A stretch of DNA of 64,000 bases from Isurus oxyrinchus. Taxonomy: Eukaryota. Position numbers and translations under genes: made by a program. Positions 22,717 to 63,953 of this stretch are shown here, piece after piece. Each line of letters starts with the position of its first letter. Position 1 is the stretch's first letter. Location: assembly GCA_026770705.1 (NCBI GenBank), contig JANJGN010000052.1:4030001-4094000 (forward strand), in the 5' to 3' direction. The notes under the pieces were generated by a model. The model ran no database searches. It had not been told where the DNA came from and saw only the letters and a list, made by a program, of their open reading frames with translations.

Positions 22717-22720
22717 CTGT

Positions 22721-33539: not shown

Positions 33540-33624
33540 AGGGAGCAGCACAGGAAGAGGTCATTCAGCCCAAGCAGAGCGTGTGGGCAGTTCCTCCCCA
33601 GGCGAGCAGTCGGACAGGTCCTGG
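33540..33624 (+). other. 85-nt exon-like cassette upstream of the leader (candidate 5' UTR exon)
   Basis: Donor gg|gtaagt; the next acceptor tttcag (34014) opens the leader exon. Confidence 0.6.
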
Positions 33625-34056
33625 GTAAGTAACAGAATGATTGGAATTCACTTCCACGACCAACACCGTCCTTTGTTGATGTTGTGACTTTATAAAGACA
33701 GATTCCAATGATTGATGCCTTTGAAAGATTTCTACTGATTATTGAGATCTGGGTGTGAGACTCAAGTCTGTTGTACAGAACATCTTTCTAGCTCAAGGGA
33801 CATGAGCTTGGGGCATCCTGAGGTGGTGAAAGGTGCTATAGAAATGCAAGTCCTTCATTGTTTTTCTTTCTGAAAGCCTTGTAACTCTCTGCAGAACACC
33901 TATCATCCCACAGAGAATCAAATTAGTCTGTGAAGATATTGTCTAAAAGCAGTTCTGATCTCTCGAGAGCATTCGGACAAGAGGTGAAGTCTCATTAACT
34001 CCTTTCTCTTTCAGAACTTCAGAGTTAGATGCTGAGGAAATATCTGGGAGCAGACA

Positions 34057-34096
34057 ATGATCGGGAAATCTTACTTCCTCCTGTCACTTCTCCAAG
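34057..34096 (+). CDS. Leader exon
   Basis: MIGKSYFLLSLLQ + G|gtaaga, phase 1. Confidence 0.85.
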
Positions 34097-37000
34097 GTAA
34101 GATCATCATCAGCTCGGACAGATTTATGGTTAATAGTCTTTGTAAAAGAACATTCTTATTGACCTCTAATTGGGAACTGATTTAGCAGTGAGCCAGTGTA
34201 CAAACTCACACTATGTCCCATTCATCCATCACCCCTGTGCTCACTGATATACACTGACTCCCTGTCTGACAGCAGAATTGGAGGACAGCAGAGGCCTTGG
34301 AGGGTTGTAGGGGCTGGAGGAGTGTACAGGGATAGGCAGGTTTGTAGCAGCGAGAGCAGAATCTCAAAATTCAGGTGCTGTCAGACGTTGGTCAGTGAGC
34401 GATGGGGATTGATGGATTGAATAGAGAAGCAGGGATAAAAACTGGTGGGTGAAGCCTATCCTAATGAGAGTTATCCGATAGCAATAACCTGAAATTTGTA
34501 TCCTTTGCTGCCATTATTCAAAACTTCCCATGAAGACAGCACAGCAGCTCCTAGAATAGACAGGCTGTTCAGTGTCACACTTCCTGTCCATTCTCACCAT
34601 GCTAGATACTTCAATAAGGGAGCAAGATAACTGAAAGAGAGAAGGGAGGCAAAGCTGTCTGTGTGTAAAACTGTCAAATATTCTGAGTTATCATGAGTGT
34701 CTCTGATCTGCTGCAGAGTTTAAATTTCACAGAATCTGGGCACATTGCAGCTCAGAGAGAGACCATTGACTCACTGCCTGAAAGGGCGGTGGAAGCAGAT
34801 TCAACAGGAACTTTCAGAAGGGGAACTGGATAAATACTTGAAGGGAAATTTGCAGGGATGTGCGAAAGGTGCTGGAGAGGAATTGGGAAAGAGTCAGCAC
34901 ATGCACGATGGGTCAAACAAGCTCCTCCTGTGTTGTATCATTCAACAATCAGACAATTTAAGACCCTTGTCAGCAAATCTTCAGAATCCTGCTGAATCAC
35001 AGATATTTCAGAAGGACAGGGAACAAGAGGTTTCTGGTATCAGCGTTTCATGTGGGGCCCAGTTCAGTTTGAACAAAAAAAATGACAACAGCATCTTTGA
35101 AAGTCATGAACCCACCACAGCGGCACCTCCGACACATGCAGAGCTCAGGCTAGAGGCGCTTTGTTAGTGTGTTTCACAGTCTCTGCTGGAGTAGGGTCAG
35201 TGCTGAGCTTGGGGACAAGTCAGTCTACAATGCTGCATCGGAATCAACAATACAACAATATGGGGTTTGGATCAGAAATAATCCCTTAGACAATGAGAAT
35301 CCAAAGAGATTCCTCAGACAATGAGGATCCAAAGAGATTCCTTATTCCATTGGTTGTCTAACTGGGGTCCATGATTTTCCAAGGGGTCCTTGGCAGAATC
35401 AAATTATCGAGCAATAGTGTGTAAAATACCGGAGAGAACGGGAAAGGTGGGATCAATGGAAAACTGTTCACTCTGTTTACACTAATGGGAGTTAGTCTCA
35501 GTAATGGAGACCATGAAACTATCATCGATTGTCATACACACCCATCTGGTTCACTAATGGCCTTTAGGGAAGGAAATCTGCCGTCTATATCTGGTCTGGC
35601 CTACATGTGACTCCAGACTCATAGCAACGTGGTTCCTCTGAAATGTCCGAGCAAACCATCCAGTTCTCACCATGCTAGAAACTTCAATAAGGGAGTAAGA
35701 TAACTGAAAGAGAGAAGGAAGGTAAAGCTGCTCATGTGGATAGATGTCAAATATCCTGAGTGATCATGATTGTCTCTACTCTGCTACAGAGATTATGTCA
35801 CGGGACATTAGAGATGGGCAGCAAATGCTGGCCTTGGCAGCGACGCCCACATCCCATGAATGAATACATTTACAAAATCTTATTACTTGGAAGGTGCAAG
35901 TGCAGGTTGTTATGATCCTTGAGCAGACCCTCTCAGCACTGACCCTACTCCAGCAGACCCTGTGAAACACACTAACAAAGCGCCTCTCGCCTGAGCTCTG
36001 CATGTGTCGGAGGTGCCGCTGTGGTGGGTTCATGACTTTCAAAGATGGTGTTGTTTATTTGTTCAAACTGAACTGGGCCCCACACAAAACGCTGATACCA
36101 GGAACCTCTTGTTCCCTGTCCTTCTGAAATATCCGTGACTTCAGCAGGATTCTGAAGAGTTGCTGATGGAGGAACAGACACCCAATTTTTTTTGATAATT
36201 TACAGTTAGGAACCAATAATATTTTGTTTCAAGTAGACAAGGTTTGAGATTTAAGACGCTTGCAAAGAGAATAGAGCTACAAGATTCCATGGCTTTTAAA
36301 CAAACAAAAATAAACTTTACTGCACCAGCTCAGAAAGATAAAATAATTCACAATGTCCACCTTATACCCTAACATTCTGGATTAATATGAGCTCATGTGA
36401 ATTAACAGGCAAACTGTGGTCTCACAGCCAAACTACTCATTAAATTGTAAACACGACCAAGATAGAGCCCATGGATTTCACAACAACCCACCCGGACATC
36501 AGTGAACACTGTCAGTCAACCAATCTCACTGAAACTCTGTTTCTCTCATGAGGGATTCCAGTCTTCAACTTCGAAGATCTTGCCTCGGAATTCTCTCCAA
36601 AAGTCGCTTCAACTCGGATGGCCTCAGTGACGTTCCACCTCACAGGGTTTCCATCTCTTCTCCTGAGGCTCCATTGCCCTGGATTCCCGACTATATACTC
36701 AAGCACCACTAGGTTTAGATGAAAGGTTTTGATTGACTGGGTAGACAGAGAATGTTCCCTCTTGTGGGCAGGAGAATAACTAGAGGCCGAGTGATTGGTG
36801 ATTCCTTAAACATTGAAGAGGGAATGAACACCAATCAGATTGAATCAGATTAGCCAATCAGCTGTGTTGAAGAGCAGACAGGAATGTTAGGCTAATTAGT
36901 GATTCATGACGGTGATAATGGGGGGAGTTCTGAGGGCTCCTAATCCATTGTCCTGTCTTGTAAATCAGCACTGAATGGATCTCAATTGGTGCGTCTTGTA

Positions 37001-37528
37001 GACACTGTGTTGGGTGGAAGACTGGCTTCACTAAGGGGAAGTGGTAGCAGAGAGGTATTGTCACTGGGCTAGTATTCCAGAGGCCCAGGGTGATGCTCTG
37101 GGGCCCTGGGTGTGAATCTTATCACAGCAGATGAATGGGATTAAAAAGCCTGGTTCACTGATCACCTATAGGGAAGGAAATCTGCCACTCTTACCCAGTC
37201 TGGCCTACATGTCACTTCAAACCCAAAGCTATGTGGTTGACTCTTAAATACCTCTGATGGACATGGGATGGGTAATAAATCCCATGAATGAATAATTTGA
37301 AAAAAAGCTAAACAGTGTCCTGAGGACCATGAGCTAATGTAGAATGAACTTGTCCACTCCTGCGTCCAGGATTCTCTTCCATCCATTGTGAAACCTTGAG
37401 GAGTTCCTTGTGTGTCCTGTAGATGGTCCACACTGCAGCCAATGTGCCCCAGTGATGGAGGGGGTGGATATCAAGTCTAATGGATTGAAAAAACATCCAG
37501 AATTAAGTATTGATATTTCTCTCCACAG

Positions 37529-37894
37529 TTGGACTGTCACAAGAGTGGAAAGGTGACACTCCACGAGAGGTGACAGCGCAGGAAGGTTCCTGTGTACAGA
37601 TTCCATGTCATTACAGTTATCCATCACATTTGGAAAAGCAACCACGAGTTGGAATCTGGTTTAATAATGAGGAATGGAGAACATCGTCTATAGCCTTTCA
37701 CTCCAAGGATCACAGTCACGAGTTACCTCGGTTCCACCATCGGACCCGGCTGTCTGGAGACCTGAAAGATGGTGACTGTTCCCTGATTATAAACAACATC
37801 AGACGGGAAGATGCAGGACCTTATTTTTTCAGAATAGAATTTGACAGCAGAAATAAATACAGCTACTATCCTGTAACCCAGCTTCACGTTTCTG
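37529..37894 (+). CDS. Siglec V-set sialic-acid-binding exon
   Basis: QEWKGDTPREVTAQEGSCVQIPCHYSYP...GDCSL...YFFRIEFDSRNKYSY; Arg codon at 37831-37833. Confidence 0.93.
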
Positions 37895-38752
37895 GTAAGT
37901 GCTGTGTTATAATTACTCAACAATTCACATCCAACACTCAATGGGAAACAACACAAACTGTGACGTTTACATATTAACACAAAACACAGCTTATTATAAC
38001 ACACTGTCTGATTCTCAATCACCTGCTGACAGCTTCCAGTTCAGTCCTAAAGCAACCTCTAAAATCACTTTAATATCAATGATGAAAAGCATTAACTGTA
38101 TTATCAGGTTATCCACTCCCATCAATCTCTCCTGTCCTGTTTAAAAGTCTGACTTATCGATAAAAGAAAGATGTGCATTTCTGCAGCGCAATTTACCACC
38201 TCAGGAGGATCCAAATCCCTTCACAGCCAATGAAATTATTCCTGAATTGTAGTCACAGATGTTAAACACAGCAGTCAGTTTGTGCACAGCAAGATCCAAC
38301 AAACCACAAGGTGATAAATCACCCAGATCACTGAGGAAATGAGAAGCCAGTGAACTCAAACCTCTGGTCTGATGAAGAGTCATACGGACTCGAAACGTTA
38401 ACCCTGTCTTCCTCTCCACTGATACTGTCAGACCTGCTGAGTCTTTCCAGCAATTTTTGTTTTTGTTTCAGATTTCCAGCATCCGCAGTATTCTGCTTTT
38501 AACTCCAATCTCTGGTCTGAGCCTCTTCTCTCATCCAGTGTTCTCAATTCACATGTCTCGGAGTGAACGTGTATTAAGCTGAGAGACAGAAACACTACTG
38601 CCAAAGAGCAAGAAAATCTTTCCTGATCATTGTAACCTCTCAGTTCTGATATCATCCTTGTAAAAGTGCTTTCTCTTGTGGGACTGTGGTTTCTATTTGA
38701 ACTGATGCTTCACGTTATATTTCTCTAAAAGGATCCATTCTCTGTCTGTTAG

Positions 38753-39049
38753 ATTTCACAGATAAACCCATGATATTCCCTGCTGAAATTATTGCAGGAA
38801 AGCGTGTGGATGTAAGCTGCACCTTCAACACAATGTGCAATGGAACAGCAGCACCTGTCTTAACCTTGGACACTCCCACTGACGTACGTGGATCAGTCTC
38901 AAACACTGTAACTCAGCATGGTGTCACTCTGACCTATACTTCTGTTCTGACCCTGATCCCATCACTCAAACACCACGGACACACACTCAGCTGCAGAGTG
39001 AGATATCCATCTGTTTCATCGGAGCGGACCCTCGTACTAACTGTGCAAG
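38753..39049 (+). CDS. C2-set domain 2 exon
   Basis: 297 nt, phase 1-1; VSCTFNTMC...LSCRV; C-strand Trp replaced by Leu. Confidence 0.9.
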
Positions 39050-39268
39050 GTAAGAATGGACACCCTTCATTCTACATTAGCTAGAAAGCTCTACATAGTA
39101 CATTGCAAGATCCCACAACTGCATTGCGTTTAGCAACAAATCAATAGTCTTTAACTGATACAAATTCACCTCTGACACTGCAGCAGTCCCTGAATACTGA
39201 TTCTCCAACACTGCAGCACTCCCTCAGTACTGAGTCTTGTTCACAATGAAATCTTTAATTGTTCTTAG

Positions 39269-39361
39269 ATGTACCACAGAATCTCTCATTTACTTCGCTT
39301 GATATGATTAATGCTTCATCGATCAATATAATTGAGGGGTTCATAACCATCACTGTGGAAT
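39269..39361 (+). CDS. In-frame 31-codon mini-exon (internally deleted C2)
   Basis: Both splice sites kept; 189 nt deleted between two GAGGGG motifs. Confidence 0.6.
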
Positions 39362-40020
39362 GTGAGTTAATGCAAACTTCAACATCACTCACACACACGC
39401 ACACACACACACACACACACACATGCAGAAACACACACAATCTCAACTCACACAAGCACACACACACACACATGCATAGACAGACACACGTGCGCACACA
39501 CACACAAACACACATGAGTGCGTGCACACACACAGATCCTTATTTTACAGAAACATACACACACAAGCCAACACACACATACACACACAAAAACATGTGG
39601 GTTCCCTCTCCTCTCCCAGTGCTGCACTCAGTATCAGCTCCGAATCTGTGTTGATGAAAGGTAAACTCCAGATCATCAAGACACTGAACTGGATGGAGCA
39701 ACCTCCTGAAGAGTGAATTGTAGATTTACCCCTCAGTGCTCCATTGGTCAAATACAATTCATTGCCTTTGAAGCCCTTGGGGACATCCTGAGGATCTGAA
39801 AGGGAGTTTCCTGCATTCTAGATGGACACCTCCACTGGTGGGAGAATGTAACTGCAGTGTGACAGTTTACATAGGCAGTGCCCATTGTAAATGTGAAATA
39901 AGTTCTTATCCTGAGGGAATGTACCTGGAAATGCATTCAGACATCAGATACAGAGACATGATGCATGGAGTCTTGCTGTGCACTATATTTGCTCATATTA
40001 AAATCTTTCTATGTTTATAG

Positions 40021-40302
40021 ATGCACCACGGAATCTCTCAATTACTTCTCTTGATATGATTAACGCTTTATCGATCGATGTAATTGAGGGGAATTCTGCA
40101 GTGATAATCTGCTCTGTCGAGAGCTTCCCAGCTTCTAACCTGACGTGGCGACATCTTAATGTCCCAATGAACAGAACAAGTTCCAGCAATGAGCTGTGGT
40201 TGGTGATTCCTCACGTTACATCCAGGGACACTGGAGACTATCAGTGTGTGGCAGAGAATGTATATGGAGCAGTGGAGGGGTTCATAACCATCACTGTGGA
40301 AC
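40021..40302 (+). CDS. Repeated C2 exon 1
   Basis: 282 nt, phase 1-1; IICSVESFPASNLTW...DTGDYQCVAEN. Confidence 0.9.
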
Positions 40303-40328
40303 GTGAGTTACTGCAAACTTCAACATCA

Positions 40329-40365
<37 letters not shown>

Positions 40366-40972
40366 ACACACGTGCACACTACTCATAAACATACACACAC
40401 ATTCACTCATGCACAGAAATATACACAAAGACACACTCACATATGCGCAAACACATACACACATGCACACACAGACGCATGCGTGCATACTCACACAAAC
40501 ACACTCACATGTGCAGAAACACAAACACAAACACATACACACACATGAGGTCCCTCTCCTCTCTCAGTGCCGCACTGGAGTCTTGGTATCAGCTCTGATT
40601 CTGTGTTGAAGGAAGGTAAACTCCAGATCAGCAAGACCCTGAATTGGATGAGCAACCTCCTGAACAGAGAAATGTAAATTTACCCCTCAGTGCTCCATCA
40701 ATCAAATACAATTCATTCCCGTAAATCCCTTGGCAAAATCTTGAGGATGTGAAAGTTTCTTTCATTCTAGGTGGACAGCACCTCTACTGGTGGGAGAATG
40801 TAACTGTAGTTTGACTGTTTACATAGGCAGTGCCCATTATAAATTTGACAGTGGAAGTTATATGGAGGGAAGGTACCTGGAATTGCATACAGACATCAGA
40901 TACAGAGAGATGATGCATGGAGTCTTGCTGTAAATTGTGCTTGCTCACATTAAACACTTGATTTGTTTTTAG

Positions 40973-41254
40973 ATGCACCACAGGATCTCTCATTTACTTC
41001 ACTTGAAATGATTAATGCTTCATCAATCAATATAATTGAGGGGAATTCTGCAGTGATAATCTGCTCTGTCGAGAGCTTCCCAGCTTCTAACCTGACGTGG
41101 CGACATCTTAATGTCCCAATGAACAGAACAAGTTGCAACAATGAGCTGTGGTTGGTGATTCCTCATGTTACATCCAGGGACACTGGAGACTATCTGTGTG
41201 TGGCAGAGAATGAACATGGAGCAGTGGAGGGATTCATAACCATCACTGTGGAAT
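40973..41254 (+). CDS. Repeated C2 exon 2
   Basis: 282 nt; extra Cys (TSCNNEL). Confidence 0.9.
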
Positions 41255-41997
41255 GTGAGTGCACACAGACATCTACATCACACAAACACACACACACATG
41301 CAAAAACACTCATGTGTAGACACAAACATGCACGCTTACACACAAACATACGTTCAAACACATACACAGAAACACACACAAACTCAACTCACACATACAA
41401 TCATTCATGCGCACACGTAGACACACGTATACACACACACTCCCTCAAGCACAGATGTACACACGCAGACCCACATACACACGCGTGCCCACACATGCGC
41501 AGACAGACACGCGCATACACACAAATACAAACTCACTTGTGCAGAAATACACACACACACACAAGTGTGAGATCCCTCTCCTCTCTCAGTGCTGCACTGG
41601 AGTCTTGGTATCAGCTCTGATTCTGTGTTGAAGGAAGGTAAACTCCAGATCAGCAAGACCCTGAATTGGATGAGCAACTTCCTGAACGGAGAATTGTAGA
41701 TTTACTCCTCAGTGCTCCATCGATCAAATACAATTCACGGGCTTTCAATCCCTTGGGGGCATCTTGAGAGTGTTAAAGGATGTTTGTTTCATTCTAGGTG
41801 GACAGCAACTCTGTTGGTGGGAGAATGCAACTGCAGTGTGACAGTTTACATAGGAAGTGCCCATTATAAATGTGACAGTATTTTTTCCTGCGGGAAGGTA
41901 CCTGGAAATGCATTCCAACATCAGATACAGAGAGATGATGCATGGAGTCTTGCTGTGCACTGTGCTTGCTCACAGTAAAATCTTTATTTGTTTTTAG

Positions 41998-42279
41998 ATG
42001 CTCCACAGAATCTCTCAATTACTTCTCTTGATATGATTAATGCTTCGTCGATCAATATAATTGAGGGGAATTCTGCAGTGATAATCTGCTCTGTCGAGAG
42101 CTTCCCAGCTTCTAACCTGACGTGGCGACATCTTAATGTCCCAATGAACAGAACCAGTTCCAACAATGAGCTGTGGTTAGTGATTCCTCACGTTACATCC
42201 AGGGACACTGGAGACTATCAGTGTGTGGCAGAGAATGAACATGGAGCAGTGGAGGGGTTCATAACCATCACTGTGGAAT
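41998..42279 (+). CDS. Repeated C2 exon 3
   Basis: 282 nt, AG/GT. Confidence 0.9.
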
Positions 42280-43019
42280 GTGAGTTAACGCAAACTTCAA
42301 CATCACTCACACGCACACAGACACACACACACACACACACACAGACACATGTAGGCACACACATGCATAATTATACACACACAGTCATACACGTACAAAC
42401 ACATACACAGGAAAATACACACCCATCTCAAACACACACATATTCATGCCCACACATAGACACACACATGCACATACTCTCACTCATGGACAGACGTAGA
42501 CACACAGACACACGCGCATGCACACACACAGATACATGTGTGCATACACACACAAACACACTCACATGTGCAGTAACACAAACACACACATACACACGCG
42601 TGAGTTCTCAGTGCTGCACTGGAGTCTTAGTATGAGTTCCGATTCTGTGTTGAAGGAAGGTAAACTCCAGATCAACAAGACCCTGAATCGGATGAGCAAC
42701 CTCCTGAACAGAGAATTGTAGACTTACCCCTCAGTGCTCCATCGATCAAATACAATTCATTGCCTGTCAAGCCCTTGGGGACATCCTGAGGATGTGAAAG
42801 CAAACTTCTTTCATTCTAGATGGGCAACACCTCTGCTGGTGGGAGAATGCAATTGCAGTGTGACAGTTTACATAGGCAGTGTCAATTATAAATGTGCCAT
42901 AAGACCTTATCCTGAGGGAAGTTACCTGGAAATGCATTCAGACATCAGACACAGAGACATGATGCATGGCGTCTTGTGCACTATGTTGCTCACGTTAAAA
43001 TCTTTATATATATATATAG

Positions 43020-43301
43020 ATGCATCATTGAATCTCTCAATTAATTCTCTTGATATGATTAACGCTTCATCAATCAATATAATTGAGGGGAATTCTGCAG
43101 TGATAATCTGCTCTGTCGAGAGCTTCCCAGCTTCTAACCTGACGTGGCGACATCTTAATGTCCCAATAAACAGAACAGGTTCCAACAATGAGCTGTGGTT
43201 GGTGATTCCTCACGTTACATCCAGGGACACTGGAGACTATCAGTGTGTGGCAGAGAATGAACATGGAGCAGTGGAGGGGTTCATAACCATCACTGTGGAA
43301 C
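43020..43301 (+). CDS. Repeated C2 exon 4
   Basis: 282 nt; polypyrimidine tract replaced by (TA)n. Confidence 0.8.
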
Positions 43302-43347
43302 GTGAGTTAATGCCAACTCAACATCTCTCTCATACACGCACACACAC

Positions 43348-43405
<58 letters not shown>

Positions 43406-44114
43406 ATGTGTAGACACATACGTGCACATTTACACACACAGTCATACACGTGCAAAAACAGACACAGAAACACACATACACTCAACTCACACGCACACAC
43501 TCACACAGGCACACATATAGACATACACATGCACTCACGTTCACTCATGCACAGACGTATACACAAAGACACACTCACATATGCGCAAACACATACACAC
43601 ACGCACACACAGACACATGCGTGCATACACACACAAACACACTCACATGTGCAGAAACACAAACACACACATACACACGCATGAGGTCCCTCTCCTCTCT
43701 CAGGGCTGCACTGGAGTCTTGGTATCAGCTCCGATTCTGTGTTGAAGGAAGGTAAACTCCAGATCAACAAGACCCTGAATTGGATGGAGCAACCTCCTGA
43801 ACAGAGAATTGTAGACTTACCCCTCAGAGCTCCATCGATCAAATACAATTCATTGCCTATCAAGCCCTTGGCAAAATCCTGAGGATGTGCAAGGAAGTTT
43901 CTTTCATTCTAGGTGAACAGCACCTCTACTGGTGGGAGAATGTAACTGTAGTTTGACTGTTTACATAGGCAGTGCCCATTATAAATTTGACAGTGGAAGT
44001 TATATGGAGGGAAGGTATCTGGAAATGCATACAGACATCAGATACAGAGAGATGATGTATGGAGTCTTGCTGTGCATGCTGCTTGCTCACATTAAAAACT
44101 TTATTTGTTTTTAG

Positions 44115-44396
44115 ATGCTCCACAGAATCTCTCAATTAATTCTCTTGATATGATTAATGCTTCATCGATCAATATAATTGAGGGGAATTCTGCAGTGATA
44201 ATCTGCTCTGTCGAGAGCTTCCCAGCTTCTAACCTGACGTGGGGACATCTTAATGTCCCAATGAACAGAACAAGTTCCAACAATGAGCTGTGGTTGGTGA
44301 TTCCTCATGTTACATCCAGGGACACTGGAGACTATCAGTGTGTGGCAGAGAATGAACATGGAGCAGCGGAGGGATTCATAACCATCACTGTGGAAC
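44115..44396 (+). CDS. Repeated C2 exon 5
   Basis: 282 nt, AG/GT. Confidence 0.9.
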
Positions 44397-45373
44397 GTGA
44401 GTTAACACAAGCTTCAACATTACTCTCACATATACACAGTCACACTCATACACACACACACACACACACACGTGCACACAAACAAGCATTCATGTGCAAT
44501 CCCACATGTCCACAGGTGTGTACACCTGCATGCTCACACACAGAAGGAAACATACACAGAATCACACGTGTGCTTGCTCACACACACACACACAGACATG
44601 TGTGAGTTGTCTGTTCTCCCTGTGCTGCACTGGAGCGTTGCTCCAGATTCTGCTCTGAAACACTGACGACATCAGCTGAACAAGACCCTGTATTGGACGA
44701 GCAGCCCCCTGCACAGAGAATTGTAGGTTTATCACCCCATTATTCTAAAGCAATTCCTCCACTGTCAAATCTCCATAAATATCCTGATGATGTGAAAGAC
44801 ATTTTCTTTTCTTCTAGCCCGACAGTGTCTCCTCTGGTGGAAGGCTGTAATTACAGCGTGACAGTTTACATATCCACATGCAGCAAGAGCTGAACAACAC
44901 TCAGCTTGGGCTGAGACAATTAATGCATCACAAGTACCAGGCAGTGATCATGTCCAACAAGAGAGAATCTAACCATCTCCCCTTGATGTTCAGTGAGTTT
45001 ACTATCACAGAATCCCCCACAATCAACATCCTGGGGGATGTTAACCAAACAACTAACTGGACCGGCCATAAATACTGTGGCTACAGGAGCCGGTCAGAGG
45101 CTGGGAATTCTGTGGGGGTGAAAAACTCACCACCACCTCCTCAAGGGCAATTAGGGATGGGTAATAAATGCTGGTCTAGATAGATACAGCTACTTCCCAT
45201 GAATGTACAAAAAGAAAAACACCGGCAGTGACCATTATAAAAGTTGACATAGGAACTTAAAACAGGAAAGAACTCTTGAAATGCACATAGACACCAAATA
45301 GAGAGAGATGTATCATGGAGTCTTGCTGTGCACTGTGTTTGCTCACAATGAAACCACCTTTATTTGTATCTAG

Positions 45374-45655
45374 ATGCACCACGGAACCCATCAATTACTT
45401 CTCTTGATATGATTAACGCTTCATCGATCAATATAATTGAGGGGAATTCTGCAGTGATAATCTGCTCTGTCGAGAGCTTCCCAGCTTCTAACCTGACGTG
45501 GCGACATCTTAATGTCCCAATGAACAGAACAAGTTCCAACAATGAGCTGTGGTTGGTGATTCCTCACGTTACATCCAGGGACACTGGAGACTATCAGTGT
45601 GTGGCAGAGAATGAACATGGAGCAGTGGAGGGGTTCATAACCATCACTGTGGAAC
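45374..45655 (+). CDS. Repeated C2 exon 6
   Basis: 282 nt, AG/GT. Confidence 0.9.
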
Positions 45656-46414
45656 GTGAGTTACTGCAAACTTCAACTTCACTCACACACACACACACAC
45701 ACACACATACACACACACACACACGTGTAGGCACACACATGCACACTTATACACACACAGTCATACACGTGCAAACACATACAGAGGAATATATATACAC
45801 AACTCACACACACACACACATTCATGCCCACACATAGACACACACATGCACATTCACTCACTCTTGGACAGACATTGACACACAGACATGCGTGCATGCG
45901 CACACACAGATACATGTGTGCATACACACACAAGCACACTCACTTCTGCAGAAACACAAACACTCACACACTCTCACACATACACAAATATGAGTTCCCT
46001 CTCCCCTCTCAGGGTGCACTGGAGTCTCGGTATCAGCTCTGATTCTGTGTTGAACGAAGGTAAACTCCAGATCAACAAGTCCCTGAACTGGAGGAGCAAC
46101 TTTCTGAACAGAGCATGGTAGATTTACCCCTCAGTGCTCCATCAATCAAACATTGCCTGTCAAGCCCTTGGCGAAATCCTGAGAATATGAAAGCAAGCTT
46201 CTTTCATTCTAGAGTGACAACACCTCTACTGGTGGGAGAATGCAATTGCAGTGTGACAGTTTACATAGGCAGTGTCCATTAAAAATGTGGCATAAGACCT
46301 TATCTTGAGGGAAGTTACCTGAAAATGCATTCAGACATCAGATACAGAGACATGATGCATGGAGTCTTGCTGTGCACTATGTTTGCTCACGTTAAAATCT
46401 TTATATGTTTTTAG

Positions 46415-46696
46415 ATGCACCACGGAATCTCTCAATCAATTCTCTTGATATGATTAACGCTTCATCGATCAATATGATTGAGGGGAATTCTGCAGTGATA
46501 ATCTGCTCTGTCGAGAGCTTCCCAGCTTCTAACCTGACGTGGCGACATCTTAATATCCCAATGAACAGAACAAATTCCAACAATGAGCTGTGGTTGGTGA
46601 TTCCTCACGTTACATCCAGGGACACTGGAGACTATCAGTGTGTGGCAGAGAATGAACATGGAGCAGTGGAGGGGTCCATAACCATCACTGTGGAAC
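46415..46696 (+). CDS. Repeated C2 exon 7
   Basis: 282 nt, AG/GT. Confidence 0.9.
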
Positions 46697-47361
46697 GTGA
46701 GTTACTGCAAACTTCAACATCACTCACACACACACACATACACACACAGACACACACACACACACACGCACACACACACACACGCACACACATACACATA
46801 AACAGGTGCACGTAAACATGCGTTCATATTTAATCCCATGTCTGCACAGGTGTGCACGCCTGTATGCTCACACACAGAAGCATACATACAGAATCACACG
46901 TGTGCTTGCTCACACACACACACAGACATGTGTGCGTTGTCTGTTCTCCCTGTGCTGCACTGGAGTGTTGCTGCAGATTCTGCTCTGAAACACTGACGAC
47001 ATCAGCTGAACAAGACCCTGTATTGGACGAGCAGCCCCCTGCACAGAGAATTGTAGATTTATCACTCAATACCCCATTATTCTAAAGCAATTCCTCCACT
47101 GTCAAATCCCTGTGAACATCCTGATGATGTGAAAGACATTTTCTTTTCTTCTAGCCTGACAGTGTCTCCTCTGGTGGAAGGCTGTAATTACAGCGTGACA
47201 GTTTACATATCCACACGCAGCAAGAGCTGAGCAACACTCAGCTTGGGCTGAGAAATGACAATTAATGTTCATGCCACACAAGTACCAGGGAGAGCTGTTC
47301 CTTGTATTGACCCTTGGGATTGTTTATCCCAACTTGATAGGGCAAAGGGGGCCCAGGTTGT

Positions 47362-47428
47362 GACTATCAGTGTGTGGCAGAGAATGAACATGGAGCAGTG
47401 GAGGGGTTCATAAGCATCACTGTGGAAT
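47362..47428 (+). pseudogene. 3' remnant of a C2 exon
   Basis: DYQCVAENEHGAVEGFISITVE|gtgagt; 5' part missing. Confidence 0.8.
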
Positions 47429-48247
47429 GTGAGTGTGGAGATACATTTGTTTGTTTGTTGTCTCCGTGGTCTCCGTGGAGCCATTGGGATCGTGTTGTTT
47501 TTAATCCAGTTTTCTTCAATCCTCGCTCAGTCCACGTTATCCACACATCCAATTTTTCCTCTCCCTTTCTGTTTTTGCTCTCAGTTTCTCCTTCAATGGT
47601 TGTCAGGACAAGGCTGTCAGGTCTTCGTTTCCAATCTCCATACTTGATGACCTTTCTCTCTCTAACTGTCCTGAACAACCCTTTTAATTGCTGAACTTCT
47701 CATTCTTTAATTGATAAATATTATATATAAATGTTACATGGATTACTTTGAAATGCAATACCTGTATTCATAAATTGCTTAGAAATGACTAAACATTCAA
47801 CAGCCAATGAAGCATTATCGAAGTGAGCTCACTGTTGTAAAGGAGGAAACACAGGTACTGATTTGTACACAGCAAGATCCCACAAACCACCGTGTCTTAA
47901 TGACCTGATAGGCGATTATTTCAATGAGGTTGGTTGTTTAATGTGTAGAGAGACTACATACCCTTTAGGGAGGGAAGCATGTCTCGATGTGGATGTGACT
48001 CCAGTCTCAGACACCAACATGGTTAACTCACACCTGCCCTGTGAACTGGTCTCCCAGTTTGGGACAAACCAGTGGATCAGGAGGAAGACCCCCCACCACC
48101 TTCTCAAGGGGAAACTAGGGATGGACAATAAATGTCAGCATTGCCCGAGAATGAGTATTTAAACACTGAGTGAGTGTATCGCTTCTCGAGATACATCGGA
48201 GCATCATTGTAAACCTGTAGTGCAGTAATTAATGGCTGTTTTTACAG

Positions 48248-48344
48248 GTAGAGACTCCAGTAAAGGGACAGTAGGATTGTTCACGGCTGGGATCATGTTG
48301 AGTGTTTTCCTGGCTGGAATCTTCATCTTCATCTGTGTGAGAAA
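48248..48344 (+). CDS. Transmembrane exon (uncharged)
   Basis: 97 nt, phase 1-2; RDSSKGTVGLFTAGIMLSVFLAGIFIFICVRK. Confidence 0.88.
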
Positions 48345-49038
48345 GTAAGTCTGAAGATTTAACTTGATTTTAATATAAACATTTGCTTCAATGTTCTTTC
48401 CTGAAGTCGGTGATTGTTTCCCTTGTGTTAAGCGCCAGATGCCTCTCCCTAACTGGTCTCTTTATCCGTTATGATCCAGAGAGTGTTTTTCATTGCCCGT
48501 TATCCAGATGAATAATAATCAGTTGCTGTGATCTGGAAGGTGCTGCCTGAAAGGGCGCTGGAAGCAGATTCAATAGGAACTTTCAAAAGGGGAATTGGAT
48601 AAATACTTGAAGGGGGAACATTTGAAGGGCTATGGGGGGAAGAGCAGGGGTGGAGGGGGGGTAAAAGATATGGCGTGTTATTATAATGATATTATACCTT
48701 AGGCTTATTTACTGTATAAGACAGAAAACACCAATCACTCATAGGGGATTTGGTGAGAATATTAATGATTTGTTTATCAAGACTCGGCACGAGAACAGTT
48801 ATACATACGAAGAAAGCTTGAAGGCATCAGAGCTGTGAGTGTGTGTTCTGCTCAAAGCAAATGTCAAACTGAGATTGGATCACATGACACACTTCCATTA
48901 TAGTGATGTCACGCTGATACCCCTTATTGGAACTAGAGACAGTCCAGTCGTTGGTGTAAGGTTACAGTGGGCTCTGTGTCTGTGCTGCACTGACTCTCTG
49001 CTATATGATAACCACAGTGTGATATTGTGTTATTGCAG

Positions 49039-49120
49039 GAGAAAGACAGCAATGGAGGAGAGAGGTTCAGGGACCAATTACATTGCATTGACCCTCAGGT
49101 CACTCTCTGTGAAGCACCAG
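49039..49120 (+). CDS. Cytoplasmic exon 1
   Basis: 82 nt, phase 2-0; RKTAMEERGSGTNYIALTLRSLSVKHQ. Confidence 0.82.
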
Positions 49121-49332
49121 GTACAGGAACTGTTTACACTCACTCCAAAGCTTCAACCTCAGTGTGTACACAACACGTATACCAGATTCTCAGCCGGGTT
49201 ACACACAGATATCGCCCTGTGAAGTCAGCAATGGCTCAGTGGTCAGCACTGTCTCTCGCTCCCTGCCTCTGTCTCCCTCCATCACTCGCTCTTTGACCAG
49301 AAACCTGAACACAATAATGACAAGGCACCTGA

Positions 49333-50220
49333 TGTCAGTACTGAGGGAGTGCTGCACTGTCAGAGGGTCAGTAGTGAGGGAGTGCTGCACTGTCGGAGTG
49401 TCAGTACTGAGGGAGTGCTGCACTGTCGGAGGGTCAGTACTGAGGGTGTGTTGCACTGTCAGAGGATCAGTACTGAGGGAGTGCTGCACTGTTGGAGGGT
49501 CAGTACTGAGGGAGTGTTGCACTGTCAGAGTGCCAGTACTAAGGGAGTGTTGCACTGTCAGAGGGTCAGTACTAAGGGAGTGCGGCACTGTCGGAGGGTC
49601 AGTACTGAGGGAGTGTTGCACTGTCAGAGGGTCAGTACTGAGGGAGTGCTGCACTGTCGGAGGGTCAGTACTGAGGGAGTGCTGCACTGTCAGAGGGTCA
49701 GTTACTGAGGGAGTGCTGGACAGTCGGTGGGTCAGTACTGAGGGAGTGCTGCACTGTCTGATGGTCAGTACTGATGGTGTGCTGGACGTTTGGAATATCA
49801 GCACTGAGGCAGTGCTGCACTGTCAGAGGGTCAGTACTGAGGGAGTGCTGGACTGTCAGAGGGTCAGTACTGAGGGAGTGCTGCACTGTCAGAGGGTCAG
49901 TACTGAGGGAGTGCTGCACTGTCAAAGGGTCAGTACTGAGGGAGTACTGCACTGTCGGAGGGTCTGTAGTGAGGGAGTGCTGCACTGTCAGAGGGTCAGT
50001 ACTGAGGGAGTGCTGCACTGTCAGAGGATCAGTATTGAGGGAGTGCTGCACTGTCAGAGGGTCAGTATTGAGGGAGTGCCGCACTGTCAGAAGGTCAGTA
50101 CTGAGGGAGTGCTGCACTGTCAGAGGGTCAGTGCTGAGGGAGTGCTGCACTGTCAGAGGGTCAGTTGTGAGGGAGTGCTGCACTGTCAGAGGGTCAGTAG
50201 TGAGGGAGTGCTGCACTGTT
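49333..50220 (+). repeat. 33-bp minisatellite in the last intron
   Basis: About 27 units. Confidence 0.92.
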
Positions 50221-50408
50221 GCAGTGCGATAGAGATTAAATTATTAAGAGAGAGAGAAAGCGAGATAGAAAGATGACAGAGAAAGAGAGTGAAAAAAAGG
50301 CTTAAACGCTCTGAGCCACGACTGACACTAACGAGGCTGCAGAATAATTTAACCCTATCAGTGCCAGTAAATGATGTGAGGATGTCTTCTGTTTCCATTT
50401 CTCTGTAG

Positions 50409-50657
50409 GGTAAACAGAATGTGCTGATTACTGAGCCCCAGAACACAACCAGAGACACAACTAGTGAGGGGGAGACCCCAGCTCCCCGGGATCTCTCTGA
50501 AGGTCCAGTGGGAGGCGATGTTGGACATGGGAACCCCGACAATACCGACGACCTTCTCTACGCCAACATCAACTTTTCAAAGCTGCCCAGCGGTGACAGG
50601 ACTGTGCACAGGAGCGAGGACACGGAATACACACAGATCAGGTTCCAGAAAAACTGA
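50409..50657 (+). CDS. Terminal cytoplasmic exon with ITIM and ITSM-like motif
   Basis: DDLLYANINF and EDTEYTQIRF before the stop; same arrangement as CD33-related Siglec tails. Confidence 0.9.
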   Translation, partial: GKQNVLITEPQNTTRDTTSEGETPAPRDLSEGPVGGDVGHGNPDNTDDLLYANINFSKLPSGDRTVHRSEDTEYTQIRFQKN

Positions 50658-50946: not shown

Positions 50947-51838
50947 TGGTACGAAAGTATAATAATTTGCATAATATTTTCCTGGTTTGTTTTAAAGTAG
51001 GTTTATGGGTGTGAGTGTAGATGGGTCTGTCTGTGTAGTTTAATTACATCTGGAGTCAGGTAGACTGCAAGTTTGAGATTATCAAAAGAAGCTAGATGTA
51101 GAAATGTACTTGAAATGCTAATGAGAACACATGGAGGCTGTGTTAGCATGTAAGGTGTGAAGGGGTTGTTTAGATTTCAAAGGGATGTTGGTCTGTTTAG
51201 GACAAGCCAATAAGCAAAGCTAAGGAGTTTTTTTTTAATTTTACCCAAACTTCATTGACAATATTGGCAACATGAAAGTTTATATTATGGGAAAGATACA
51301 GTTCCAAAGAATTTACACATCAAAGAGAGAGAAACATGTATAAAGGAGAATGAAAGGCTATGTTGGGGGCCATGTAAGATCTAACAGGAGTGTGTGAAAC
51401 AGGCTTGAAGAAGCCTCCAGGCATTTGTGCATAAGTCTGTTATGTTCAGTAAATAAAGTTGGAGAAATCCATTTAGAATTCCAGTGTCAAGTGTGTGCTG
51501 TGTTAACTCGCTGGGTTTGTTTTTAATCTAAAATTGTATTTTGGACTGTTGCCTTAAACGGGCTCTGTAACTGGGAGTCAGGTTAATTAGGAATTTGAGA
51601 ATTTATTTTAGTTGTAACTAACCGTGGTATTATGTCTGTGCTTGAAATCTTTTATTTTGTTAATAAATATCCTAATCAAATTTTTAAAATGTCTAAAGGT
51701 TGTGGTCAACTCATTACTCCAGAATTCAGTGCACGCATCTTGTAATAAATACAAATTGCAAACTATTGTGATAGCATGACCAATTTTCCCTTGTGGATTT
51801 GGAGCACCAAGCACACATCATCTGCCATGTCATGTCAC
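50947..51838 (+). mobile_element. Solo LTR nested in a LINE
   Basis: Homologous to 21788-22716; interrupts the LINE sequence gaatcgggg|ggaaaactctcc. Confidence 0.7.
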
Positions 51839-51839
51839 A

Positions 51840-58549: not shown

Positions 58550-59069
58550 CAGAGAGAGAGAGTGCGTTTGTGTGAGAGAGAGAGACAATGTATGTGTGAG
58601 AGACTGAGTGTGTGTATGTGTGAGGGAGCAAAAGAGAGTTAGAGTGTGTGTGCATGAGAGAGGGAGGTAGCTTGTGTGTGTGAGAGAGAGAGTGTGTGTG
58701 AGAGAAAGAGAATGTCGATGTGAGAGTGAGAGTGAGTTTATCTGTGAGAGATAAAGATAATGAGAGAATGTGTGTGTGAGATAGTGTGTTTGTGAAAGAG
58801 CGTGTGTGTGATAGTATGTTTGTGTATGTGAGAGTGTGTGCGTGAGATCGTGTGTGTGTGTGTTTGAGAGAGGGTGTGTGTGTTTGAGAGAGAGGTTGAT
58901 TGTGCGTTTGAGAGAGGGAGTGAGAGAGAACATGTGTGTGAGAGCGAGAGTGTGTGTGTATGTGTGTGTGTGAAAGAGTGTTTGTGCAAGAGAGTGTGTG
59001 TTTGAGAGTATGTGTGCATGTGTGAGTGTGCATGTGTGTGTGTATGTGTGTGTGTGTGTGTGCGTGTGT

Positions 59070-59105
<36 letters not shown>

Positions 59106-59850
59106 ATTCTGACTGAGCCGAGTTCACAGTTTCACACGTTGCTAGGGATCACTTTTCCGCCTCTCTGTCAGACTGTGTGTGTGAGAGAGAGAGTGTGTGT
59201 GAGAGAAAGAGAATATCTGTGTGAGAGTGAGAGAGAGTTTATGTGAGAGAGAAAGGTAGAGAGAGAATGTGTGTGTGAGATAGTGTGTGTGCGAAAGAGA
59301 GAGTGTGTCTGTGAGAGAGTTTGAGTATGTGAGAGAGTGTGTGTTTGAGAAAGGGAGTGTGGGTGTGTTTAAGAGAGTGAACGAGTGAAAATGTGTGTAT
59401 GTGTGTGTGTGCGTGAGAGAGGGTGTGTGTGTTTGAGATAGGGAGTGTGCGAGAGCGAGGTGGTGTGCGTGTTTGAGAGAGAGGGAGATTGTGCATTTGA
59501 GAGAGGGAGTGAGAGAGAACGTTTATGTNNNNNNNNNNNNNNNNNNNNNNNNNNNNNNNNNNNNNNNNNNNNNNNNNNNNNNNNNNNNNNNNNNNNNNNN
59601 NNNNNNNNNNNNNNNNNNNNNNNNNNNNNNNNNNNNNNNNNNNNNNNNNNNNNNNNNNNNNNNNNNNNNNNNNNNNNTGTGTGCCTGTATGTGTGTGTGA
59701 GTTTATGTGTGAGCGTGTGTGTGTCTGTGTGTGTGTGTGTGTGTGTGAGTGTATGTGTGTGTGTGTCTGCGTGTGCATTCTGACTGAGCCGAGTTCACAG
59801 TTTCACACGTTGCTAGGGACCACTTTTCCGCCTCTCTGTCAGACTGTGTG
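58550..59850. repeat. GT/GA compound microsatellite with a gap at 59529-59677
   Basis: Low complexity; duplicated blocks on either side of the gap. Confidence 0.85.
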
Positions 59851-59941
59851 TATCTGACAGCAGGTCAGGCAGAAATAGTCCAGAATGCACTGTGGTTTTG
59901 TAGCATTGAAACAACGACATGAACTAAATGAGTGCTGCATC

Positions 59942-60007
59942 ACTATCAGTGTGTGGCAGAGAATGAACGTGGAGCAGTGGAGGGATTTATAACCATCTCT
60001 GTAGAAC
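59942..60007 (+). pseudogene. 3' remnant of a C2 exon
   Basis: YQCVAENERGAVEGFITISVE|gtgagt. Confidence 0.8.
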
Positions 60008-60049
60008 GTGAGTTACACAGAATTGAACATTCTCTTGTTGTTAGCTCAT

Positions 60050-61075: not shown

Positions 61076-61268
61076 CTGTTATATGTGAATCCTCCTTATA
61101 GAAACCTGCATGTACATGGATATTATCAATAAATATTACATAGATAAATGTTATTTGTATAGACCTTTCATGCATAGACAATATCACTTCACAAGTTCAG
61201 AATTACTACATGTACATAGGGAACCATTCTCAAACTGTACCAGAGTCATTCATTGGCTGATTTTACAG

Positions 61269-61365
61269 GGCGAGATTCCAATGAATGGAAAGCAGGATTG
61301 CTTGGAGCTGGAATCTGTTTGAGTGTTGGACTGAGTGGATTCTTCATCTTCAAGTGTGTGAGAAA
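61269..61365 (+). CDS. Second TM exon (paralog of 48248)
   Basis: 97 nt, phase 1-2; RDSNEWKAGLLGAGICLSVGLSGFFIFKCVRK|gtcagt. Confidence 0.75.
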
Positions 61366-61659
61366 GTCAGTGTGAAGGTTTAATTGGTTGTTTTTGAAAA
61401 TGTTTTCTTCAACCTTCGCTCCTTATAGAAAAAACTTGCATTTCTATAGCACCTTTCACAACCCAAAACCCTTCACAGCCCCTGAAGAGCTTTGATGTTC
61501 AATCATTATTGAACACCTCATCCTACACTCCCTGTTTGACAACTCAGTCCTGTAACTGGCAGTTTTGACCCGGACCATAAAATACCCTGTGACCCCTTGA
61601 GGATGTGAAAGGTGCTATATAAATGAAAACCTTTCTTTCGTTAGTGCATGCAATCTCAT

Positions 61660-62092
61660 TCCATTTTCCATGTTTCATTCACTCTCTCTTATCTCCACTA
61701 ATGCTGGCCTTCTCATTCTCTCTCTCATTCACTCTCTCTCCAATCTCCACTAATGCCCTCCTTCTCATTCTCTCTCTCATTCACTCTCTCTCCAATCTCC
61801 ACTAATGCTCTCCTTCTCATTATGTCTCTCATTCACTTTCTCTCCAATCTCCACTAATGCTCTCCTTCTCATTCTCTCTCTCATTCACTCTCTCTCTTAT
61901 CTCCACTAATTCACTCCTTCACATTCTTTCCATCATTCACTCTCTCTCCAATCTCCACTAACGCTCTATTTCTCATTCTCTCTCTCATTCACTCTCTCTC
62001 CTATCTCCACTAATGCTCTCCTTCTCATTCTCTCTCTCATTCACTCTCTCTCCAATCTCCACTAATGCTCTCCTTCTCATTCTCTCTCTCGT
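61660..62092. repeat. 52-bp pyrimidine-rich minisatellite
   Basis: Unit ctccactaatgctctccttctcattctctctctcattcactctctctccaat, about 8 copies. Confidence 0.9.
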
Positions 62093-62382
62093 CCTCTTAC
62101 ACGTTGTTCAGTCTCTCACATTTTTAAGGAGCGCTGAGCTACATCTGCTCCTTCAGAAGATCCACCTCAACACCTGGAGTGAGCAGTGAATTGAAACTCG
62201 CTCAACGACTGCTCAGCTTTACACAGGAATCACGTCACAGAGTCAGGACACAAAGGGTTAACTGTTTTCTTTCAACACAACACTAAGGCCCTACGTTTCA
62301 ATGAAAGGGTTTTCACAATTGTTCCCCAATTCCTGATTTTGTCTCACAGAGACACATCAACCCTTTCTCATTAAATACACAG

Positions 62383-62467
62383 AGGGAGCAGCACAGGAAG
62401 AGGTCATTCAGCCCAAGCAGAGCGTGTGGGCAGTTCCTCCCCAGGCGAGCAGTCGGACAGGTCCTGG
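62383..62467 (+). CDS. Candidate cytoplasmic exon (phase 2-0) of the second tail module
   Basis: 85 nt, open: GSSTGRGHSAQAERVGSSSPGEQSDRSW|gtaagt; links TM 61269 to exon 62979 in frame. Confidence 0.6.
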
Positions 62468-62978
62468 GTAAGTAACGGAACGATTGGAACTCACTTCCAT
62501 GACCAACACCGTCCTTTGTTGATGTTGTGACTTTATAAAGACAGATTCCAATGATTGATGCCTTTGAAAGATTTCTACTGATTATTGAGATCTGGGTGTG
62601 AGGCTCAAGTCTGTTGTACAGAACATCTTTCTGGTTAAATTATACAGACAGGTTACACACAGTCTACGATTATATTCCCTCGGGCCTAGAAGATTAAGGA
62701 GTGATCTAATTGAGGGGTTCAAACTGATTAAACACTCGATAGGGTCGATAGAGAGAAGCTATTCCCTCGGGTGGGGGTGGGTGGTGGGGGTCGGGTGGAG
62801 TCCAGAACAAGGGGGCCGGAACTTCAGATTGGAGCCAGGCCGTTCAGGGGTGATGTCAGGAAGCACTTCTTCACACAAAGGGGAGTGGAAATCTGGAACT
62901 CTCTCCCCAATAATCAAACCCAACACCGAATACACATCATGTTGATTGTCACTCTGTCCATTTCCATCTCTATTACAG

Positions 62979-63083
62979 AAGAGAGGCGAGGGGAAAGCAG
63001 GAATCAAATCGAACCACCGTGTTGATGAATATCGAGGTCCTGTTTATGAAAACTGTGAGCGTGGTTGGGCTTTGAGGAATCAG
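62979..63083 (+). CDS. Cytoplasmic exon with YEN motif
   Basis: 105 nt, phase 0-0; KRGEGKAGIKSNHRVDEYRGPVYENCERGWALRNQ|gtgagt. Confidence 0.7.
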
Positions 63084-63216
63084 GTGAGTCACACACCACA
63101 GGATCACCAGCCTCTCAGCTGCTCCAGTAGCCTGGTTATTGATATGGCTGCTCCAGTCCTGTATCTGCAATGTTTTATACAGTCACTCCCAAACCCAACC
63201 AAACTCACACCCAACA

Positions 63217-63737
63217 CCGTTCAGAATCAATAATCAAACCCCGTTCAGTATCAATAATCAAACCCCGTTCAGAATCAATAATCAAACCCCATTCAGTATC
63301 AATAATCAAACCCCGTTCAATATCAATAAGCAAACCCCGTTCAGTATCAATAATCAAACCCCGATCAGTATCAATAAACAAACCCCATTCTGTATCAATA
63401 ATCAAACCCCGTTCAGAATCAATAATCAAACCCCGTTCAGTATCAATAATCAAACCCCGTTCAGAATCAATAATCAAATCCCGTTCAGAATCAATAATCA
63501 AACCCCGTTCAGAATCAATAATCAAACCCCGTTCAGTATCAATAATCAAACCCCGTTCAGTATCAATAATCAAACCCCGTTCAGAATCAATAATCAAACC
63601 CCGTTCAGTATCAATAATCAAACCCCGTTCAGAATCAATAATCAAATCCCGTTCAGAATCAATAATCAAACCCCGTTCAGAATCAATAATCAAACCCCGT
63701 TCAGTATCAATAATCAAACCCTGTTCAGTATCAATAA
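63217..63737. repeat. 24-bp minisatellite
   Basis: ccgttcag(a/t)atcaataatcaaacc, about 21 copies, no spacers. Confidence 0.95.
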
Positions 63738-63836
63738 TTAATGTATCCATTGTGGGTGGAATTTTCGATTTGGATCAATAATTCTAAACACTGATCACTC
63801 TGATTGTCACTCTGATCATTTCTGTTTCTATTACAG

Positions 63837-63953
63837 AAGAAAGATGAGAAGGATCTGGAAATGAAATCTAACCGCGGAGTCAATCCTGATACAGATGATG
63901 ATCTTTACGCAAACTGTGAATTTGCCAAGGATTCTGTTTATGGGAATTTATAA
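63837..63953 (+). CDS. Terminal cytoplasmic exon with LYAN and SVYGNL motifs
   Basis: Acceptor tttctattacag; KKDEKDLEMKSNRGVNPDTDDDLYANCEFAKDSVYGNL*. Confidence 0.72.
   Translation, partial: KKDEKDLEMKSNRGVNPDTDDDLYANCEFAKDSVYGNL

Follow-up and report, generated by a model that had tools for sequence, protein, structure and literature searches.

A transmembrane and YxN-tail exon cluster in Isurus oxyrinchus as the probable 3' remnant of a Siglec-like gene

The locus and its exons

The locus analysed here is a 64,000-nucleotide stretch (the window) of the 4.98-Gb Isurus oxyrinchus assembly GCA_026770705.1 (contig JANJGN010000052.1, positions 4,030,001 to 4,094,000 of the forward strand). It contains an ITIM-type Siglec-like gene and, further downstream on the same strand, four exons for a transmembrane (TM) segment and a tail with YxN motifs. 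The main features are:

33540..50657, plus strand: ITIM-type Siglec-like gene, with its 5' exon at 33540-33624 and its leader at ~34015-34096
37529-37894, plus strand: V exon of the ITIM gene, with PDB and Pfam matches
38753-39049, plus strand: C1 exon of the ITIM gene
39269-39361, plus strand: short C2 exon of the ITIM gene
Ends from 40302 to 46696, plus strand: seven C2 exons of the ITIM gene
46415-46696, plus strand: last C2 variant of the ITIM gene
47363-47428, plus strand: C2 stub of the ITIM gene
48248-48344, plus strand: TM exon of the ITIM gene, canonical
49039-49120 and 50409-50657, plus strand: tail exons of the ITIM gene, with LLYANI and TEYTQI
51450..51750, plus strand: three AATAAA hexamers, candidate polyadenylation signals, 3' of the last exon of the ITIM gene
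59678..59941, plus strand: intergenic spacer, which in undeleted pairs runs on towards the 5' exon and leader of the next gene
59942..60007, plus strand: C2 stub, the final 66 nt of the remnant gene's own last C2 exon with its GT donor; the 5' edge is the breakpoint
61269..61365, plus strand: TM exon of the YxN-tail subfamily, 97 nt, phase 1 to 2
62383..62467, plus strand: tail exon 2, 85 nt, phase 2 to 0
62979..63083, plus strand: tail exon 3 with VYENC, 105 nt, phase 0 to 0
63837..63953, plus strand: terminal exon with LYANC and SVYGNL, 117 nt including the stop
33540-33624 (plus), 25781-25865 (minus) and 62383-62467 (plus): the copies of the 85-nt exon in the window

The best PDB matches of the V exon at 37529 are Siglec-5 (E 5.6e-16), CD33, sialoadhesin and MAG; in Pfam, V-set and Ig_CD22 score above the cut-off, and its YFFR motif aligns to the YFFR of Siglec-5. 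The F-strand arginine of this motif serves sialic acid binding in the Siglec V-set. It is kept in the V exon adjoining C1 in the intact YxN-tail genes inspected, and the V exons of intact YxN-tail genes are 89-94% identical to the one at 37529. Based on the V-set domain and the F-strand arginine of the predicted proteins, we place the gene cluster in the Siglec family. The four downstream exons have no leader and no V-set exon of their own, and the remnant that they form is a fragment of a Siglec-family member, not a whole member.

The window contains additional sequences of this family. On the plus strand, 27157-27405, 28562-28642 and 30092-30340 are orphan copies of ITIM-tail exons with no TM or ectodomain exon in line with them. 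On the minus strand, a head-to-head Siglec-like gene (17434-25865) has a 5' exon, a leader, two V exons, C1 and a partial C2; its first V exon has a stop, and no TM was found for it within the window. The 93-nt C2 exon at 39269-39361 has an in-frame internal deletion that is common to several sister ITIM genes. For the ITIM gene's own C2 stub at 47363-47428, the match starts at the same codon as for the stub at 59942, and the sequence upstream is different; a common site of breakage or a common origin may lie behind this. The interval from 46696 to 61269 contains long tandem repeats; the tandem repeats of ~600 nt at 54830-55450 and 56100-56780, which are 82% alike, mark the spacer after ITIM genes in many copies, and a search of these two for an Ig match gave none.

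As the preliminary description of this DNA had proposed, the exons that start at 61269, 62383, 62979 and 63837 have CAG acceptors and GT donors and join in frame (phases 1-2-0-0). The joined exons encode a TM followed by a tail that bears VYENC, LYANC and SVYGNL. The presence of an identical TM exon in 75 of the 103 genomic copies examined, together with the conservation of the tail in other sharks, confirms that the four exons are real and excludes chance. The 20-residue TM core was searched for a charged residue (Lys, Arg, Asp or Glu) and has none; lysines flank the core only. In DNA, the TM exon is 75% identical to the TM exon of the upstream ITIM gene. Its donor is GTCAGT, while the family donor is GTAAGT; GTCAGT occurs in six of the 14 truncated copies described below, including the one in the window, and in 0 of 89 other copies. 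The acceptor regions of exons 3 and 4 are 86% alike over 43 nt, seven residues separate the two four-residue tyrosine motifs in the terminal exon, and an AATAAA is located ~0.8-1.1 kb 3' of this exon, outside the window. A Pfam search of the TM and tail exons gave no match, and the short tail is probably disordered. LYANC could be taken for a decayed copy of LLYANI of the ITIM gene, which we regard as a resemblance only.

Exon 2 is identical in sequence to the 5' exon of the upstream ITIM gene, and the two share ~300 nt of context at 96%. An exon of 85 nt is used in two ways: as a coding exon of the YxN tail and as the exon preceding the leader in both gene types. It sits ahead of the leader in most genes of the cluster, and in white shark RefSeq models it is the first exon, joined to the leader. 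Tail copies differ from 5' copies by 0.024, and tail copies differ among themselves to the same extent (0.024). The idea that exon 2 is a recently captured promoter or UTR exon was rejected, as its peptide is present in the tails of both galeomorph and squalomorph sharks.

Genome-wide copies and the deletion junction

DNA searches yielded 144 candidates for the last exon and 112 for the TM region; 40 of each were scored, all at 98-100%. By pattern, we found 111 copies of the YxN-type TM and 226 copies of the ITIM-type TM, giving a genome total of ~340 Siglec-type TM exons; these counts refer to assembly loci and not to the genes of a haploid genome, as some contigs may be alternative haplotypes. 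We fetched and examined 103 of the 111 YxN-type copies. The last C2 is full length in 87 of them, present as a stub only in 14, and not in range in two. Among the 87 full-length C2 exons, which mostly lie 1.2-1.3 kb upstream of the TM, 64 are open and canonical and 23 are broken; an intact last C2 is combined with an open canonical tail in 40 of the examined copies. When 9.9 kb of upstream sequence was inspected for the first 20 copies, a full C2 was found in 12, and V and C1 were also in range in eight of these 12. The earlier view of an orphan TM/tail module is therefore not borne out: most copies lie behind ectodomain exons of their own. All three YxN motifs are present in 66 of 66 complete, in-frame, non-truncated copies, compared with seven of nine truncated ones. 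In this genome, an ITIM-type gene often precedes a YxN-tail gene, and each of the 14 truncated copies has an ITIM terminal exon 8-28 kb upstream in the same orientation; this order reflects the parental order, not independent recurrence.

A very large Siglec-like array is held by contigs C52, C71, C121, C150, C189, C323, C385, C546, C646 and others, and extends over the full length of several contigs (0.2-4.2 Mb). In 15 of the 103 copies (e.g., C52:1198666 and C71:2166106), a leader exon comes immediately after the TM and exon 2, and the basking shark model XP_078390090 has a similar arrangement. Such copies probably arose by recombination between the tail exon 2 and the 5' copy of the next gene, with deletion of exons 3 and 4. 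In nine examined copies (e.g., L056, L057 and L110), the exon 3 acceptor is GG instead of AG; this would force an in-frame skip of exon 3, as in a white shark isoform, leaving two of the three YxN motifs.

At 59941/59942 in the window, the intergenic spacer runs into what remains of a C2 exon, its final 66 nt, with one base of microhomology. We searched the interval between 50657 and 61269 for leader, V, C1 and C2 exons and found no intact one, in agreement with the preliminary description, in which the 66-nt stub was overlooked. The stub lies 1261 nt 5' of the TM, the last C2 being 1212-1267 nt away in most copies, and 59942-61398 is 95% identical to the C2-intron-TM sequence of an intact parental gene. 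The spacer that ends at 59941 is found undeleted 153 times in the genome. On the window's contig, for which 32 TMs are listed, the distance from spacer to TM is 9.7-14.7 kb in 11 parental pairs (two more, at 27 and 35 kb, were left out of the count) versus 1.36 kb in the window, and the three undeleted pairs inspected have a 5' exon, leader, V and C1 between spacer and TM. Comparison with the undeleted pairs shows a deletion of ~8-13 kb that would have taken the 5' exon, the leader, V, C1 and most of the last C2, and traces the remnant to a tandem pair whose second gene lost its 5' half. Because 14 of the 103 examined TM copies share the junction in slightly diverged forms, we infer that the deletion was a single event, later copied together with the neighbouring gene in segmental duplications.

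Two N stretches (431 and 149 nt) are present in the interval, and the breakpoint is 3' of both. Five N-free sister copies on four other contigs have the same junction without any Ig exon between spacer and TM, and on the strength of these copies we reject an ectodomain of the gene's own inside the N stretches. Because they hold no Ig exon there, closure of the gaps would not bring an ectodomain back.

Both decay and low variation are seen in the truncated copies. Exons 3 and 4 are lost in five of the 14 truncated versus 10 of the 87 full copies (Fisher p 0.03; the copies are not independent), and in these five truncated copies the leader comes after exon 2. LYANC is changed to LHANC (Tyr to His) in two of nine complete truncated copies versus 0 of 66 complete others. 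An open canonical tail is retained in nine of the 14, including the copy in the window. Segregating columns in truncated copies number 6/404 in exons versus 114/2254 in introns (Fisher p 0.0006), and diversity in the nine open truncated copies is 0.0045 in exons versus 0.018 in introns; here, columns and copies are not independent, the nine copies represent few sub-lineages, and indel alignment inflates the intron counts. For intact copies, segregating columns are 0.149 in exons versus 0.194 in introns, and diversity is 0.0225 versus 0.035. Truncated copies have one private amino-acid change where ~5 would be expected (Poisson p 0.04); when the comparison pool includes every other fetched copy, private changes number 3/404 in exons versus 22/1302 in non-repeat introns (p 0.24). 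The low exon variation is the pattern that selection would give and, as such, is a real but weak hint. It was probably caused by gene conversion with the many intact copies; gene conversion is evident because most intron variants are shared with other copies and because of the many identical TM exons.

Expression and tail motifs of the YxN family

Transcript data come from assembled contigs of four probable RNA runs from three samples, the organisms of which are not established as the species of the window. A C2-to-TM joint of an intact copy was found in all four runs, with the limit that C2 ends and TMs are near-identical across copies. In one of the runs, TM-to-exon 3 and exon 3-to-exon 4 joints map to an intact copy. 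A contig of run X1 (L185:1743-3100; window 61365) has the TM joined directly to exon 3; skipping exon 2 in this manner changes the reading frame and leaves a short tail that has no tyrosine. TM-exon 2 and exon 2-exon 3 joints were not among the matches listed, and the inclusion of exon 2 follows from the RefSeq models and the reading frame. Among the matches listed, contigs that cross 59942 in two to three of the probable RNA runs run on into an intact C2, and spacer contigs from one probable RNA and one probable DNA run continue into undeleted sequence. Neither a stub-junction contig on 59781-61670 nor a transcript specific to a truncated copy was among the matches listed; contigs drop rare forms, and the missing stub transcripts prove nothing about the expression of truncated copies. 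The YxN family as such is spliced and probably expressed.

In a protein search, the nearest proteins to the window exons are from lamniform sharks. The white shark models XP_041037222-225 ('MAG-like') combine a full ectodomain with this TM and tail, with XP_041037223 being an isoform that skips exon 3. These four models, the basking shark models XP_078390089 and XP_078390091 ('Siglec-13') and the zebra shark model XP_048379657 share the TM, the tail exons and the motifs of the window copy, whose TM is 97% identical to that of the white shark and 94% identical to that of the basking shark. Full ectodomains with this TM and tail are present in RefSeq models of white, basking, whale, zebra, bamboo, smooth-hound, cat, sevengill and saw sharks, and RefSeq models of rays and skates have a similar tail end. 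The elasmobranch models, which are automatic, have their own leader, V and C2 exons, whereas the window copy has only the 66-nt C2 stub. As judged from these models, the YxN-tail class is old and carried by stand-alone genes in sharks and rays.

White shark ITIM isoforms (XP_041037215-221) and YxN isoforms (222-225) form separate isoform series, three basking shark isoforms all carry the YxN-type TM, and the two TM/tail types never occur together within an examined RefSeq isoform set. A different V domain is found in the white and zebra shark YxN-tail models and in one basking shark ITIM-tail model; the one in the white shark model is without the YFFR arginine. The presence of this V domain on both tail types suggests that heads and tails have been shuffled across the family.

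A search with one white shark model gave 126 proteins, of which 120 were listed, and the compared set comprises 136 proteins, 30 of which end in YxN. Fourteen orthologous tails, picked by eye because they share this TM and tail, were aligned. In all 14, both of the last two tyrosines are in YxN, with a motif spacing of seven residues; this spacing is also found in 28 of the 30 YxN-ending proteins, and it is six in the other two. The residue at +3 of the first of these tyrosines is Cys in 13 of the 14 aligned tails. The ITIM consensus is [I/V/L/S]-x-Y-x-x-[L/V] (PMC7226832). SVYGNL, previously read as an ITIM, fits it in this genome, but the fit is weakly conserved: with I also allowed at +3, the tail end conforms in six of the 14 orthologous tails and in 15 of the 30 YxN-ending proteins. 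Compared with the ITAM consensus D/E-x-x-Y-x-x-L/I-x6-8-Y-x-x-L/I (PMC5112662), the YxN tail has the right spacing and preceding acidic residues, but Cys at the first +3 breaks the consensus, and the tail would be ITAM-like at most. The SH2 domain of Grb2 binds pY-x-N (PMC5302901, PMC2709368). The suggestion in the preliminary description that the tail engages Grb2-family proteins gains from the conservation of Asn at +2, and with Asn at +2 of a conserved tyrosine the tail is a predicted Grb2-docking (pYxN) sequence.

Origin of the remnant and significance of the intact subfamily

We consider it probable that the four exons stem from a separate Siglec-like gene as its 3' half, after a single deletion of the 5' half, and that they persist as a likely inactive leftover. 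According to this model, an ITIM-type gene and a YxN-tail gene formed a tandem pair, from which a single deletion of the size given above would have removed the 5' exon, leader, V, C1 and most of the last C2 of the second gene. The truncated remnant and its neighbour would then have been copied by segmental duplications, and conversion with intact copies would have held the remnant exons near the family sequence. With its 5' exon and leader gone, the remnant probably does not yield a receptor and is likely to be inactive. Among the two options offered before, the decapitated paralogue is shown by the junction, the C2 stub and the undeleted parental pairs, while two-tail splicing is without direct support.

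Such splicing would mean that the deletion made a working alternative 3' end, with read-through from the ITIM gene and a C2 donor spliced to 61269, giving two tails. We regard this as unlikely. The observation that the phase-1 acceptor fits every upstream C2 donor is correct, all of these donors being phase 1; however, because every Ig exon here is phase 1, the match is not evidence of splicing use. The position of all 14 truncated copies behind a same-strand ITIM exon makes read-through splicing geometrically possible, but this pairing is one event copied and not 14 independent ones. Similarly, the nine open tails with their low exon variation (a weak point) and the alternative splicing of tail exons in the family (the RefSeq skip of exon 3 and the TM-exon 3 contig) agree with a functional 3' end, yet the motif exons are lost in five of the 14 truncated copies, a tyrosine is lost in two, and the donor is weaker in six. 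Moreover, the three AATAAA signals and the canonical TM exon of the ITIM gene need bypassing, for two truncated copies, the 14-20 kb of upstream sequence retrieved contains no ectodomain on the same strand, the examined RefSeq isoform sets keep the tail types apart, and intact genes with near-identical ectodomains already give the same combination. It is likewise doubtful that the pair was fused to one unit and amplified as a cassette at least 14 times, with selection on the tail exons in nine copies. If true, the read-through isoform would be a one-gene paired receptor born by a single deletion.

Transcription of the remnant alone, from exon 2 or a cryptic promoter in the spacer, to give a short adaptor without an ectodomain is very improbable. 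The identity of exon 2 and its context to the 5' exon at 33540, together with the white shark models that begin with this sequence spliced to the leader, speaks for such a start, but the window exon 2 reads GTG at the position of the white shark model's ATG, no leader is present ahead of the TM, and a spacer-to-TM joint is absent among the matches listed; furthermore, the same would hold for intact copies, and the deletion would be unneeded. That the gene is whole, with ectodomain exons hidden under N stretches or lost in assembly, has a negligible probability in our judgement. Near-identical arrays are prone to misassembly, the interval has the two N stretches, and the listed contigs of two other runs show undeleted spacer only. 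On the other hand, the breakpoint is inside a C2 exon and 3' of both N stretches, the five N-free sisters share this junction and are devoid of Ig exons, three of them having nearly the same spacing (3583-3693 versus 3838 nt), and the junction occurs in diverged variants, unlike the product of a single misjoin. Our preferred explanation remains the 3' half of a gene truncated by one deletion.

A truncated duplicate within a birth-and-death array is ordinary in itself, and known Siglec loci provide parallels. The primate Siglec-5/14 and Siglec-11/16 pairs are neighbours with near-identical ectodomains, different signalling ends and gene conversion (PMC5701461; for paired Siglecs and gene conversion, also PMC13358205). 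Like the shark array, the primate pairs with SIGLEC16P combine neighbouring paired genes with non-functional copies that persist (PMC5701461); SIGLEC16P is a frameshift allele, whereas the window copy has its 5' half deleted. Activating primate Siglecs use a charged TM residue and DAP12 (PMC2832619, PMC7226832). Such a residue is found in the DAP12-coupled Siglec-14, -15 and -16, whereas the shark TM core is uncharged and the tail has its own tyrosines. Marsupial and Xenopus CEACAMs have ITIM-paired, ITAM-spaced tails with YxN (PMC2832619, PMC5112662). The YxN genes resemble these and CEACAM3-like proteins in having ITIM relatives, several small tail exons, and ITAM spacing with YxN; in contrast, the CEACAM N domain and the Siglec V-set are different ectodomain families, the first shark motif has Cys and not Leu/Ile at +3, and both shark motifs are themselves YxN. 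In CD22 (Siglec-2), a non-ITIM pY-x-N site binds Grb2 and serves inhibition (PMC5302901); CD22 has ITIMs and YxN in one tail, whereas ITIM/ITSM-like and triple-YxN tails are on separate genes in the shark.

The intact subfamily is more interesting than the remnant. From established pathways, we suggest that sialoglycan binding may lead to phosphorylation of the tail tyrosines by a Src-family kinase, that Grb2-family SH2 domains may bind the pYxN sites, and that Syk or another tandem-SH2 kinase could dock on the final tyrosine pair with its ITAM spacing. The intact YxN genes would most likely act alongside the ITIM genes as activating or adaptor-coupled partners without a need for DAP12; because the YxN site of CD22 serves inhibition, the sign of the YxN signal is not fixed. 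The available text of PMC7226832 lists four regular Siglecs in fish, states that inhibitory CD33-related Siglecs are absent and makes no mention of cartilaginous fish, and that of PMC8455134 has a single mention of Siglecs. The ~340 Siglec-type TM exons in this genome contrast with these four regular fish Siglecs (PMC7226832) and with 15 human Siglecs. We found no paper on the YxN tail class or the array in the literature searched, in which few subscription journals are included; the class is present in RefSeq, yet undescribed in that literature. Altogether, sharks and rays have a stand-alone Siglec-like subfamily with the tail end Y-x-N-C-x7-Y-x-N-(V/I/L), and its Y-x-N-C-x7-Y-x-N tail is a candidate third signalling mode beside the ITIM and adaptor coupling through a charged TM.
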